A stretch of 64,000 nucleotides of DNA from a virus (taxonomy: Duplodnaviria; Caudoviricetes), in the IMG/VR virus record IMGVR_UViG_2840500688_000001, positions 6,810 to 70,809 of that record; one strand, given 5' to 3'. Below the pieces are notes generated by a model that saw nothing but the letters and a program-made list of their open reading frames with translations, did not search any database and had not been told where the DNA came from. Below, in pieces: positions 3,582 through 59,947 of the stretch. A program made the position numbers and the translations under genes. How positions within the stretch are numbered: position 1 is the stretch's first letter; each line of letters opens with the position of its first letter.

Positions 3582-3658
3582 GTGCCTTTAGCTCAGTTGG
3601 TTAGAGCACTCGACTCATAATCGAGCGGCCGTTGGTTCGAGTCCAACAAGGCACACCA
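3582..3658 (+). tRNA. tRNA with CAT anticodon, most likely tRNA-Ile2 (lysidine) rather than Met
   Basis: Full cloverleaf: acceptor GTGCCTT/AAGGCAC, D arm GCTC/GAGC, anticodon stem CTCGA/TCGAG with loop CTCATAA, T arm GTTGG-TTCGAGT-CCAAC, encoded CCA. G1-C72 is paired, so not an initiator; C4/C5 in the acceptor stem as in Ile2. Confidence 0.92.
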
Positions 3659-5227: not shown

Positions 5228-5260
5228 AAACGAATGTAGGCAAAGCAGTAGAAGCCTGCT

Positions 5261-5372
5261 AAGACGGCACTGTAAGAAATGCGCCAACACTTCTTACAGT
5301 AGTCAACTGACAGAACCAGTTAACCCATTGCGCATAAACGCAAGGCCGCCCCCTGCAGGGGCAGTAATTTTA
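5261..5372 (+). ncRNA. Conserved four-hairpin leader upstream of com (copy 1); strand of the functional RNA uncertain
   Basis: AAGACGGC + 10-bp stem 5269-5300 (loop ATGCGCCAACAC), AACTG/CAGTT, TTGCG/CGCAA, GCCCC/GGGGC; same architecture with compensatory changes at 56391-56502. Confidence 0.7.
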
Positions 5373-5382
5373 TCAGGTTAAT

Positions 5383-5514
5383 ATGGAAAGAAAAAAGAAA
5401 GTTTTAACAGAAGTGAGATGTGCAAATTGTAATAAGAAGTTATGTGATGCTGAATACAGCGTATTAAAAATAAAATGTCCTAGATGTAAATCTATGAATA
5501 TTTTAAAGAAGTGA
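5383..5514 (+). CDS. com: Com-family zinc-finger translational regulator, 43 aa (not in the ORF track)
   Basis: MERKKKVLTEVRCANCNKKLCDAEYSVLKIKCPRCKSMNILKK; RCxxCNKxL...IKCPRCK is the Mu Com signature. Confidence 0.88.
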   Translation: MERKKKVLTEVRCANCNKKLCDAEYSVLKIKCPRCKSMNILKK

Positions 5515-5535
5515 GTGCCTAGAGCGCCTAATGTT

Positions 5536-5571
5536 GAATGCCTCGAGCATCAAAATAATGAGGTGTTCATG
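5536..5571 (+). promoter_or_regulatory. Com-binding hairpin plus SD-sequestering hairpin at the methyltransferase start
   Basis: GAATGCCTCGAGCATC (Mu site recalled as GAAUGCCUGCGAGCAUC); GAGCATC can alternatively pair with GGTGTTC, covering SD GAGGTG next to ATG 5569. Confidence 0.75.
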
Positions 5572-6360
5572 AAGAAATATACAAAAGCTCCATTACCATT
5601 TTTAGGCCAAAAGAGAAATTGGCTGCGTTTGATTAACGAAATCAATTTTGATCATATGACTGTGATTGATCTATTCGGCGGCAGTGGCATATTGTCGCAT
5701 GAGATCAAAAGAAATAATCCGAATGCTCGTGTGATTTGGAATGATTTTGATAACTATCAGGAGCGATTGAATCAAATTGAACAAACTGAAGCTTTGCGCC
5801 AAAAGATTGCCAAGGCGTGTAGTGTCTTTGAGAAAGGTACGAAATTAAGTGGGGCAGCCAAAGACGGCATACTTAAATTGATTAAAGAATCTGGTACAAC
5901 AGATTTTATTACCGTGTCGAGTTGGCTTTTATTCTCAGGCAATTATTGCCACTCTTTTGATTCATTGGCCAACAAAACATGGTACATCAGCCCGCCTAAA
6001 AATCCGCTGAATGCCGAGGATTACTTATCCAATGTAGAACGTGTCAGGATGGATTATAAAGAGCTTTTGAGTTTATACCCTGGTCATGAAAATACGGTTT
6101 TTATTGTAGATCCGCCGTACATCATGACCAATCAAACGGGATATTCAGCCAAGAATGATGCAAGGTTTAAGCTTGTTGATGCCATTCATTTATTCAAAGA
6201 ATTGGGATCTAGAAAGGCGGTTCTATTTTCTAGTACTAAATCAGAGTCTGATGAGTTATTGGATCTCATGGATATCAATGTGACAGAGCGCCATTCGTTG
6301 ATTGTGAGCCCAATCCCTGATCGAAAATACGAAGATTTATGCTACAGAATTAATTTCTAA
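5569..6360 (+). CDS. N6-adenine DNA methyltransferase (Hin1523/Hia5-like, mom-position)
   Basis: 'APLPFLGQKR', motif I 'DLFGGSG', motif IV 'VDPPY'; ORF 5515-6360, likely start 5569 after GAGGTG. Confidence 0.9.
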   Translation: MKKYTKAPLPFLGQKRNWLRLINEINFDHMTVIDLFGGSGILSHEIKRNNPNARVIWNDFDNYQERLNQIEQTEALRQKIAKACSVFEKGTKLSGAAKDGILKLIKESGTTDFITVSSWLLFSGNYCHSFDSLANKTWYISPPKNPLNAEDYLSNVERVRMDYKELLSLYPGHENTVFIVDPPYIMTNQTGYSAKNDARFKLVDAIHLFKELGSRKAVLFSSTKSESDELLDLMDINVTERHSLIVSPIPDRKYEDLCYRINF

Positions 6361-56378: not shown

Positions 56379-56390
56379 AGACGTGAGATA

Positions 56391-56502
56391 AAGACGGCAT
56401 CTAGATCAGCGCACAAACACTGATCTAGATAGCTAACTGCATAACCAGTTATCCCATTGCGCATACACGCAAGACCGCTCCTGGCCAGGAGCAATAATTG
56501 TA
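56391..56502 (+). ncRNA. Conserved four-hairpin leader upstream of com (copy 2)
   Basis: AAGACGGC + 11-bp stem 56399-56430 (loop CGCACAAACA), TAACTG/CAGTTA, TTGCG/CGCAA, GCTCCT/AGGAGC; homologous to 5261-5372. Confidence 0.7.
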
Positions 56503-56514
56503 ACAAAGGTAGTT

Positions 56515-56664
56515 ATGAAAAAGGAATATATCCGCAATAATACGGAAGAAATACGTTGTACACATTGCAACCGCAAGCTTTGTGAGGCAATATATCGGCT
56601 TATTGTAATTAAGTGTCCAAGGTGTAAAACCTTAAATTCACTTAAAAAGGATCCTGAGCGCTAA
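56515..56664 (+). CDS. com: Com-family zinc-finger translational regulator, 49 aa (not in the ORF track)
   Basis: MKKEYIRNNTEEIRCTHCNRKLCEAIYRLIVIKCPRCKTLNSLKKDPER. Confidence 0.88.
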   Translation: MKKEYIRNNTEEIRCTHCNRKLCEAIYRLIVIKCPRCKTLNSLKKDPER

Positions 56665-56678
56665 GAGCGTCTAACTAT

Positions 56679-56715
56679 GCATGCCATGAGCATCTTTAAT
56701 TTGGAGATGCCCATG
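56679..56715 (+). promoter_or_regulatory. Com-binding hairpin plus SD-sequestering hairpin at the methyltransferase start
   Basis: GCATGCCATGAGCATC; GCATCT pairs alternatively with AGATGC overlapping SD GGAG; ATG at 56713. Confidence 0.72.
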
Positions 56716-57501
56716 CGCAAATATCATAAAGCCCCATTACCATTCTTAGGCCAAAAGAGAAATTGGTTACGAAACATTTATGAAATGGATTTCGACAATA
56801 AAACCGTTGTGGATCTATTTGGTGGTAGTGGGATTTTATCTCATGAGATTAAGCGTAATCACCCAACTGCAACGGTTGTATGGAATGATTTTGATGATTA
56901 TCAATCTCGTTTAGATCAATTAGAAAAAACAGAAAGCTTGCGTCAGAATTTACTCGATTTTGGTATGGGTTTAGAAAAAGCTGCACGCATTGATCATGAG
57001 ACCAAAAATAAAATATTATCCATCATTAAAGCATCAGGTTGTACTGATTATTTGACGATTTCTAGTTGGGTATTATTCAGCGGTAATTATTGTCATTCCT
57101 TGGATGAAATTGCCAAAAAGAATTGGTATTTTCGAGTGACTAAAAATCCACTATCTTGTGATGATTATTTAAAAGGTGTGATTCGTGTTCAGAAGGATTT
57201 TAGAGCGTTATTGGCTAAGTATCAGCATAAAGAGAACGTGATTTTTATTGCGGATCCGCCATATATTATGACGAATCAGCAAGGTTATATTCCTGATAAA
57301 AATGATGATAACTTCAAACTCCGTGATGCAATTGCCTTAATCAAAGCCCTTAAAGGGCAGAATGCTATTTTATTTTCTAGCACTAAATCTGAAACGGATG
57401 ATTTATTAGAAGCCTTTGATGTGCCCATCACCAAACGAATGGCTTATCAGGCTTCATCTGGTGAGGGCAGGAAATACACGGAGTTGATGTATGTGATGTA
57501 G
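56713..57501 (+). CDS. N6-adenine DNA methyltransferase (Hin1523/Hia5-like, mom-position)
   Basis: 'APLPFLGQKR', 'DLFGGSG', 'ADPPY'; homologue of 5569-6360; ORF 56677-57501, likely start 56713. Confidence 0.9.
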   Translation: MRKYHKAPLPFLGQKRNWLRNIYEMDFDNKTVVDLFGGSGILSHEIKRNHPTATVVWNDFDDYQSRLDQLEKTESLRQNLLDFGMGLEKAARIDHETKNKILSIIKASGCTDYLTISSWVLFSGNYCHSLDEIAKKNWYFRVTKNPLSCDDYLKGVIRVQKDFRALLAKYQHKENVIFIADPPYIMTNQQGYIPDKNDDNFKLRDAIALIKALKGQNAILFSSTKSETDDLLEAFDVPITKRMAYQASSGEGRKYTELMYVM

Positions 57502-57504
57502 GTG

Positions 57505-58371
57505 TTATTGAACTTCTATCATTTCAAGTTGAAAGTTATGTGAATCATCTTTAATTTGATAAAACTTAACGTGAGTATCTTTAAATATACAGCGTAGGTA
57601 TCTTTTATGATGTTTATTCATCTTTGATCCAAAATAAATTGCAGTTACAGCGGATTGGTTATATGAAAAAAAACGATTATTTAATTCTCCACTTCTAAAA
57701 ATTAATCGTATCTCATTTTCATAAGACCATGATGATGATTTTCTTGTTAATATTTGAGTTAGGAATTTTTCATATTTTGCTAGCAGATGATTGGTTAGAA
57801 CTTGAGTATCTGTAAAGATTAATTCTTCTTCTTTTTTGATAAAGTCATTGAAGTAAATTTTCTTTGTTTCTGTTGTATATTCTACCTCTTCTAGTTTTTT
57901 ATTTGGTGCGAGGATTTCTGAATCATATTCTATTACAAATCCTTGAGACCCATTAGCGTAATGTGCCCACATTAATTCATTTGAAGCTGTATTGGTTAAA
58001 GAATAAATACCTGAGTTTTCTATAACTATATCTATTTGGCTTTTAAGTTGATTAAATAATAGCTCATCTACCTGTTGGATTATTAATTTACATTTATTTC
58101 TTTCTTGTATGTCTTTCATAAAAACCGAAGGAGTATTCAGTGTTTTTTCTGCTAATTCATAAAGGATTTTTAACTCAGGATTAAGTTGTATCATTGTTTT
58201 GCGAACTTCATTGTTAATATCTAATTTGAGCGCATTTATATCTATAGCTCCCTCTCTTGAGTCATTTAACTGATTTAGAGTAGGTACATATATTTCATTT
58301 CTAGATAATGTTTTAAAATGATATTTTTCAATGCCTTGGTATTTATAAACTTTCATGTCATTCAATTCCAT
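57505..58371 (-). CDS. DUF2971-like protein
   Basis: 'YKY', 'NDSREG', 'LMWAHYAN...GFVIEY', 'KS..WSYENEIR'. Confidence 0.8.
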   Translation of the reverse strand: MELNDMKVYKYQGIEKYHFKTLSRNEIYVPTLNQLNDSREGAIDINALKLDINNEVRKTMIQLNPELKILYELAEKTLNTPSVFMKDIQERNKCKLIIQQVDELLFNQLKSQIDIVIENSGIYSLTNTASNELMWAHYANGSQGFVIEYDSEILAPNKKLEEVEYTTETKKIYFNDFIKKEEELIFTDTQVLTNHLLAKYEKFLTQILTRKSSSWSYENEIRLIFRSGELNNRFFSYNQSAVTAIYFGSKMNKHHKRYLRCIFKDTHVKFYQIKDDSHNFQLEMIEVQ

Positions 58372-58406
58372 TGTAATTTTAGTTAGATCTAGTTTGAGAT
58401 TAGTAA

Positions 58407-58994
58407 TTACTGATTAAGTAATTCTTCAGCTGTATTTTTATTTGAAAAACAAAATGAGTCCTTTTGTGGCATATTTGACCATACGGCTGTTTTTCCAAGT
58501 TTTATACATGAATTTTTGATATCACTACCAAAGTATCGTGCTATTTTTTCAAGGTTTTGAGTACTGGGTTTTACTCTTTTCCAATGCCAAAAATATGGCT
58601 TACTACCTTCATTGTCATATTTTTTATCATTGGTAATACACATTCCTAGCAAATGAAAGGCATCTTTTTGATTAGGTGGATTCAGAACTTTTAAATTGTC
58701 TATTGCATTACCCAATGCGATAAATAAATGTTTTGTTGTAATTGGTTTATCTTCTTGCTTGAAGAGGTTGATATTTTTGAAAAAAATATCTTCTGGTATT
58801 TTCTGATTAATATGACCATTGGCTGCAATCTCTGGTTGCCAGCCCAAATTTTGTTCTTCTATTCCAAGAGTCATAGATCTACATTCAGAATAGAAAATTC
58901 CACGTATTTTAAGTCCTGAGAAAATGAAATTAAAAAGCACTGATTTGATATTTTTTTCATCCATTTTTTTAACTAAGATATTTATATTTGCCAT
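58407..58994 (-). CDS. AT-rich hypothetical protein
   Basis: 195-aa ORF coupled to its neighbours; 'KPYFWHW', 'NLEK' motifs, family uncertain. Confidence 0.65.
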   Translation of the reverse strand: MANINILVKKMDEKNIKSVLFNFIFSGLKIRGIFYSECRSMTLGIEEQNLGWQPEIAANGHINQKIPEDIFFKNINLFKQEDKPITTKHLFIALGNAIDNLKVLNPPNQKDAFHLLGMCITNDKKYDNEGSKPYFWHWKRVKPSTQNLEKIARYFGSDIKNSCIKLGKTAVWSNMPQKDSFCFSNKNTAEELLNQ

Positions 58995-59947
58995 TATTTA
59001 GCCTTTTTAACTCGTTCCCATTCTTCTTTTAAAACTTTACTAGTTAAACGAATAAATATTTTTTCTAGTAATTCATCTAAAGTTATCGAAGTATTAATAT
59101 CTATGTTATATTTTTTAGCAATTGAGGTGGCATTTTTGATAAATTCGTCACAGTCTGATTGTAAAATAGGATACAAATTAATACATCTCAATTTATATTC
59201 AGTTGGCAGCGGAATTTTTAATAATTTCTCGATTGAGTCATTATCAAAGTTATTTAAATATAATTGGTTTCCTATCTGATAAGAATATCCATTTGGAATA
59301 CCATTTAATACATGTTGTGTATCTAAAACATGGTTTCTCATCATAGATCTATCTCTCATCATTTTCATAATGGATAAGATATCTAAATTTATTTTTTCTT
59401 TATGATTTAAATAGAGTATCGATGATTGATATAGTTGAGATATTTGATTATCAATATTTTGTACATCATCTTTTGATGATTTGTTTGTAATATTTCTATG
59501 AATTGAAGAACAGTTATACAAATATGTCGTAAATATATCTCTTACCTTATTAATCCATTCCTGTCTGTTTTTAGATAAAACTTCAACTTTTACTCTATAA
59601 GTTAAGGTGTACATTACACCATAATAAGCTAAAGTACCTGCGAAGAATGTACTGAAGATTGTCGATGATGATATTGAAGTAATGTCTGTTTTTAAAAAAT
59701 AATCCAAAGGATATTCAATGGTGTAATAAACATATGCTATATAAAAATATCCCAACAAAAAAGGCATCATCCATATTATTACTCTTTTTGTTGAGTTTAT
59801 GGATTCGTTTATGAAAGGGTATGCCCATTTAAATATTGTTTTAAAAAAAGCCACAGTTTTTTTCATGCCATTAAAAATTTTTGAACATGTATTATAGATA
59901 CAGTAACCATTGTTTTTAACTGGGCAGTTTTTGCTATCACAAGACAT
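58994..59947 (-). CDS. AT-rich membrane protein
   Basis: Two TM segments followed by 'SKNRQEWINKVRD'. Confidence 0.65.
   Translation of the reverse strand: MSCDSKNCPVKNNGYCIYNTCSKIFNGMKKTVAFFKTIFKWAYPFINESINSTKRVIIWMMPFLLGYFYIAYVYYTIEYPLDYFLKTDITSISSSTIFSTFFAGTLAYYGVMYTLTYRVKVEVLSKNRQEWINKVRDIFTTYLYNCSSIHRNITNKSSKDDVQNIDNQISQLYQSSILYLNHKEKINLDILSIMKMMRDRSMMRNHVLDTQHVLNGIPNGYSYQIGNQLYLNNFDNDSIEKLLKIPLPTEYKLRCINLYPILQSDCDEFIKNATSIAKKYNIDINTSITLDELLEKIFIRLTSKVLKEEWERVKKAK

Follow-up and report, generated by a model that had tools for sequence, protein, structure and literature searches.

The 64-kb stretch of DNA analysed here, hereafter the window, carries two prophages in tandem. The first (about 1–29.4 kb) has an HK97-type terminase and capsid, and the second (about 30.3–61 kb) is P2-like, with divergent portal and terminase genes, a P2-type capsid, a tail sheath, a primase and a terminal integrase. 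Within the second prophage, com2 (56515–56664, plus strand) encodes a 49-aa Com-family zinc ribbon of the CCCC type, a predicted translational activator, which matches PF10122 Zn_ribbon_Com (E = 3.6e-10, 39.6 bits; curated cut-off 22.9) and PHROG 6417 "translational regulator" (E = 1.2e-11). Its CxxC-N15-CxxC arrangement aligns with that of Mu Com, and all four cysteines are invariant. Directly downstream on the same strand, after a 48-nt spacer, lies the gene for a DNA N6-adenine methyltransferase (MTase) of the HI_1523/Hia5 family (56713–57501, 262 aa; PF02086, E = 8e-9). This enzyme belongs to the D12 class, and its FGGSG (F36–G40) and DPPY (D181–Y184) motifs are intact and invariant among homologues; a database protein named HI_1523 is among its matches (E = 7e-40, about 40% identity), and the enzyme is probably non-specific for sequence. 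The MTase most likely initiates at ATG 56713 rather than at the in-frame ATG 56677, since a Shine-Dalgarno (SD) GGAG (56703–56706) is placed 6 nt upstream of the former, homologous MTases are 262–267 aa long, and these homologues, as well as the MTase of a second cassette in the window, align from that codon.

This second cassette, which we refer to as copy 1 (the com2-MTase cassette being copy 2), was located by a regex scan for small CxxC...CxxC ORFs. It occupies 5383–6360 (plus strand) in the first prophage, with com1 at 5383–5514 and its MTase gene at 5569–6360. A tRNA gene (3582–3655, plus strand, 74.7 bits) is found in the same prophage, ~1.7 kb upstream of copy 1. Around copy 2, three leftward genes (57505–59947, minus strand) lie between the MTase gene and the integrase, one of them DUF2971 and two without a family match; they resemble accessory genes of a prophage, or possibly cargo with a role in defence. 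No match to 56400–56800 was found by blastn against 50,697 phage records, and a protein search with Com2 returned nothing but itself. Since small ORFs are rarely called in databases, com homologues were gathered by pattern and HMM searches on DNA. A PDB sequence search returned no solved relative of Com2 or of the MTase; NCBIfam holds no Com model, and the MTase scores far under its Dam cut-off.

The zinc finger of Haemophilus sputorum Com selects GAG(N)2CC or CC(N)2-3GAG, with a hairpin loop closed by a C-G pair, a target that was defined by SELEX, EMSA and SHAPE and in which the GA of the loop is protected; the same protein also binds the 19-mer operator of Mu in vitro (Nowacka et al., PMC6483171). 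In copy 2, the proximal operator hairpin, hp2 (56681–56693, plus strand), lies upstream of the regulated start and fits this target exactly, with an AUGC/GCAU stem (56681–56684 and 56690–56693, the register that matches copy 1 and Mu), a 5-nt CAUGA loop and CC(N)2GAG with the C-G closing pair. The copy 1 hairpin at 5538–5550 fits it likewise. A second Com-type hairpin of copy 2, hp1 (56658–56670, plus strand), begins 23 nt upstream of hp2 and is seen in the minimum free energy (MFE) structure; it has a 4-bp stem and a UAAGA loop within which com2 terminates. The first base of this loop is U instead of C, and hp1 may for that reason be bound poorly by Com. An earlier note on this DNA had overlooked hp1, and all the elements it did list are present in the sequence, namely the Com-family ORF, the 16-nt site (56679–56694), the two stem halves (56690–56695 and 56705–56710), GGAG and ATG 56713, together with a site-to-start spacing of 18 nt in copy 2 versus 17 nt in copy 1 (5551 to 5569). 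Canonical tandem hairpins at 23-nt spacing are found in copy 1 (hp1, 5515–5527; hp2, 5538–5550) and in two loci from elsewhere, L006 and L257, and successive hairpins are 22–23 nt apart in 17 of 24 pairs among other com loci. This tandem arrangement fits the bipartite motif obtained by SELEX and the proposal of the same authors that there is more than one Com site.

Free of protein, the copy 2 RNA is predicted by both the MFE and the centroid structure to form a translation-inhibition helix (56682–56719, plus strand), with its 5′ strand at 56682–56698, its loop at 56699–56701 and its 3′ strand, which includes the GGAG, at 56702–56719. The helix buries hp2, the SD and the AUG: a core 7-mer (56688–56694) pairs with 56706–56712, and the hp2 loop is paired to the AUG and to the two nucleotides immediately upstream of it. 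The GCATCT/AGATGC stem proposed earlier to overlap the SD is thus present, but its extent had been underestimated, the helix comprising about 16 bp rather than 6 and covering the AUG as well. The fold of the 81-nt RNA has a z-score of −2.8, with one of 200 shuffles folding as well. The possibility of a chance stem was considered and rejected. Alone, hp2 is worth −1.4 kcal/mol, compared with −9.0 kcal/mol for the local inhibitory helix, so that the default state is predicted to be OFF. Indeed, the computed probability of being unpaired in the free RNA is 0.02 for the SD and 0.00 for the AUG, and it rises to 0.44 and 0.64, respectively, when hp2 is held in place to mimic a bound protein. With hp1 and hp2 both held, the values are 0.38 for the SD and 0.84 for the AUG; part of the SD remains paired in a weak local stem, and opening is therefore predicted to be partial even then. 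In copy 1, the inhibitory arms lie at 5545–5551 and 5562–5568 (plus strand), and the exact OFF structure is not unique, because folding offers three alternative partners for the SD region. A relative (L165, 98% identical) differs at two positions of the 48-nt spacer; both fall in helices and both improve pairing, and the core of its inhibitory helix is a perfect 10-bp helix.

Between copies 1 and 2, identity amounts to 58% for the MTase proteins, 62% for the Com zinc fingers, 53% for the com coding DNA, 67% for the com-MTase spacer and 80% for the region upstream of com. Judged by these sequences, the two copies are homologous cassettes. The earlier note had placed them in two unrelated phages, which holds for the HK97-type and P2-type structural genes but not for the cassettes themselves. 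It had also argued for selection from structures that are preserved through different sequences. This argument is weak when taken alone, as the hairpin stem and the 5′ arm of the inhibitory helix have the same sequence in both copies, and only the loops and the 3′ arm differ. Similarly, its description of copy 2 as diverged was overstated, both operators being close to that of Mu itself (PMC6483171). Comparison of the two copies thus proves little about the RNA structures, because the cassettes are homologous. The noncoding parts are, however, better conserved than com, and selection on the RNA is therefore indicated.

A broader comparison was made with com loci from IMG/VR, from metagenomes and from genomes of the order of Wohlfahrtiimonas, Neisseriaceae and Pasteurellaceae, which gave 173 distinct com-downstream regions after removal of duplicates. 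Of these 173 regions, 111 contain a canonical hairpin, for which we required C(N)2-3GA enclosed by a C-G closing pair and 3 further bp; the corresponding number is 2.5 on average (maximum 7) for shuffled sequences and 4 for the reverse complement. The stem occurs in more than 25 variants, every one of them paired. We then took the 88 regions in which a start preceded by an SD has a hairpin within the 45 nt upstream of it, picked regardless of any further pairing. The 3′ half of the hairpin (GAG and four nucleotides) pairs with the 7 nt immediately upstream of the start codon at 6 or more of 7 positions in 27 of the 88, which is only marginally more than with arms swapped between loci (mean 21.1, maximum 28). 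Perfect pairing at 7 of 7 positions, in contrast, occurs in 18 of the 88, versus 10.2 ± 1.9 with swapped arms (maximum 16 in 2000 permutations). Across loci, the pairs of the inhibitory arms change together on both sides. An alignment (A5) was made of 21 operators that had been selected for the hairpin and for pairing at 6 or more of the 7 positions, and the percentage paired in it is therefore partly built in. All hairpin cells of A5 (100%) are paired, and 22 of them have changed on both sides, compared with 6.4 ± 2.6 in shuffles; the inhibitory helix has 13 compensatory cells, compared with 5.0 ± 2.3. The earlier note had named a lack of covariation in homologues as evidence against the switch; both helices covary in homologues.

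Furthermore, a covariance model of 13 operators from other genomes, with no window sequence included, was run over both strands of the whole window. Its two best matches are exactly the two sites of the window, with 5530–5574 (copy 1) ranking first at 26.6 bits (E ~ 1e-4) and 56673–56718 (copy 2) ranking second at 24.2 bits (E ~ 5e-4), and the next match reaches 14.1 bits (E = 0.16). Rfam gave no match at either copy on either strand, whether at the gathering threshold or at E ≤ 10. In the open-access literature we found no comparative study of Com operators. The covariation described here is the first natural support that we found for the hairpin form of the Com target, hairpin versus duplex having been disputed on in vitro grounds (PMC6483171). 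In addition, overlap between operator and inhibitory helix emerges as a common alternative architecture, used by roughly a third of loci (27 of 88).

Together, these observations make it likely that copy 2 is a Mu-type, Com-dependent two-state translational switch acting on a potentially toxic adenine MTase. The two-state logic put forward in the earlier note agrees with what we find, in that the Com-binding hairpin and the SD-burying helix share nucleotides and are mutually exclusive, and both covary in homologues. In the OFF state, the ribosome-binding site of the MTase in the com2-MTase transcript would be shut by default, the helix 56682–56698/56702–56719 pairing the SD and the AUG with nucleotides that otherwise form hp2. 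In the ON state, Com2 made from the upstream cistron would bind hp2 at its CC(N)2GAG loop, and probably also the similar hairpin hp1, 23 nt upstream, with capture most likely taking place as the RNA emerges from the polymerase. Hairpins bound in this way would be excluded from the inhibitory helix, the SD and the AUG would be freed and the MTase would be translated. That Com2 binds, that binding affects translation and that the hairpins are captured co-transcriptionally is inferred here by analogy with Mu and with the experiments on H. sputorum Com.

It is unlikely that the helix over the SD and AUG is instead a constitutive damper, or that it answers a cue other than Com (temperature, ribosomes reading through com2 or a small RNA) while Com2 acts elsewhere, for example by binding hp1 only, by altering mRNA stability or through a different target. 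In favour of this reading, the inhibitory helix is stable by itself, and terminating ribosomes would melt hp1, given that the com2 stop codon is inside it. Nevertheless, the 5′ strand of the helix coincides exactly with the Com operator, the hairpin 5′ arm, the shared middle arm and the pre-AUG arm covary three ways across loci, and a heterologous Com binds the motif in vitro (PMC6483171). That the cassette is an inherited non-functional remnant, in which the structures persist merely through recent divergence of the copies and their relatives, we regard as quite unlikely. The window copies are homologous and their hairpin stems identical in sequence, as this explanation would have it, but all four com and MTase ORFs are intact with the catalytic motifs kept, conservation is higher in the spacer (67%) than in the com coding sequence (53%), and distant loci retain both helices by means of compensatory changes. 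Finally, a start of the MTase at ATG 56677 (274 aa), which would turn the operator into coding sequence and leave no leader switch, agrees with the reading frame being open from 56677 and with the 274-aa form in the database (P0001), as gene callers chose it, but we rejected it as highly improbable, since this ATG has no SD whereas GGAG precedes 56713 by 6 nt, the homologues have 262–267 residues and align, as copy 1 does, from 56713, and 56677–56712 is conserved in the manner of RNA rather than of codons. Public gene calls (P0001) place the MTase start inside the Com operator, and the N-terminus of the database MTase is, from the sequence, probably 12 residues too long.

Com switches have been known since 1989. 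In com-mom of Mu, as in copy 2, the DNA-modification gene is immediately preceded by a gene for a small CCCC zinc-finger protein, and the start region of the DNA-modification gene is buried in a helix. The Mu operator has nearly the same sequence as those in the window, copy 1 differing from it in the loop only and copy 2 at three further positions. There are also clear differences. The cargo in Mu is Mom, whereas that of copy 2 is an N6-adenine MTase, and com2 does not overlap its cargo gene as com does in Mu but is separated from it by the 48-nt spacer. The copy 2 phage is P2-like and not Mu-like, and the second hairpin 23 nt upstream sets copy 2 apart from com-mom. Most importantly, the inhibitory hairpin of Mu is separate and adjoins the operator, whereas the inhibitory helix of copy 2 is built from the nucleotides of the operator itself, so that the two would compete directly.

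Other parallels are found in Mu-like prophages, in which com is followed by a non-specific adenine MTase (Hin1523, Hia5 or Nme1821) (Drozdz et al., PMC3299994). These pairs, FluMu HI1522.1/HI1523, comHia/Hia5 of H. influenzae biotype aegyptius and NMA1821 of the Neisseria prophage Pnm1 (PMC3299994), belong to the same Com and MTase families as the genes of the window; the prophage type is different. According to the published view, silence of the MTase before lytic growth is due to Com sites at the 5′ end of hin1523 (PMC3299994, citing Morgan et al. 2002 for the sites). In the leaders of the FluMu type that were examined, the AUG sits in a separate hairpin downstream of the operator, in contrast to the overlapping helix of the window. 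Com-gated DNA-modification genes are thus already known as a kind, of which copy 2 is a further instance, and the step of direct competition is without experimental precedent, Mu and FluMu both using an adjacent inhibitory hairpin. It is modestly new that the inhibitory helix overlaps the operator, that the hairpins come in tandem and that two cassettes, probably cross-compatible, are present in co-resident unrelated prophages. The locus shows that the com-MTase cassette moves as one self-contained unit, having entered both P2-like and HK97-like phages of a Wohlfahrtiimonas-like host. Enzymes related to Hia5 have a practical side as well, being of interest in chromatin footprinting as m6A enzymes that lack sequence specificity.

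The ~110 nt upstream of com are themselves conserved: of 168 com loci, at least 47 share them, FluMu-like ones included. The conserved element is present in both copies of the window (56390–56502 and 5260–5372, minus strand in each case) and in other loci such as L294, L286, L390 and L257. A consensus fold of the same 27 sequences reaches −22.3 kcal/mol with 23 pairs on the minus strand, compared with −13.4 kcal/mol and 13 pairs on the com strand, and four strongly conserved G·U pairs are possible on the minus strand only. The element has a conserved -10-like TAnAAT box on its 5′ side and, on its 3′ side, a terminator-like hairpin followed by a U-rich tail. Because of the better minus-strand fold, the G·U pairs confined to that strand and the box and terminator, the element is probably a small-RNA gene antisense to the com leader rather than a folded com leader. 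Upstream of com2, the candidate gene (56390–56490, minus strand) would give an antisense RNA of ~100 nt with three hairpins, with TACAAT (56497–56502) as its -10 element and a terminator hairpin at 56431–56398 followed by the U-rich tail. The element matched no Rfam family, and canonical Com motifs were sought inside this upstream leader and none was found. Such an antisense RNA may add a further negative layer to the com-MTase module.

Since a heterologous Com binds the Mu operator in vitro and the operators of the window are nearly identical, the Com of each prophage probably also opens the MTase gene of the other. It is conceivable, though doubtful, that all of these features combine into a lock of three layers (the conserved antisense small RNA, two Com hairpins that are set 22–23 nt apart and must both be occupied, and the competing helix) with either Com activating both MTases. 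If this were true, Com from either prophage would bring about epigenetic crosstalk between the two.

Among the loci with an HI_1523-family MTase, ~145 of 160, mostly from Bacteroidota (among L010–L163), have no com-like zinc-finger ORF upstream and were left out of the RNA analysis; in these com-less lineages the MTase must be controlled in some other way. Many com-MTase leaders (L291–L315 from Pasteurellaceae, as well as L007 and L140) carry three or four tandem GA(G/A)NNYC heptamers, and the AUG in leaders of this type is placed in a hairpin of its own, the 5′ arm of which extends into the final heptamer. Such leaders have the adjacent architecture of the Mu/FluMu kind and is distinct from the overlap type of the window. 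One Pasteurellaceae genome (G250) contains nine Com matches of near-identical score on two contigs, which may mean that a Mu-like transposable prophage is present many times over or that a com cassette has been repeated.
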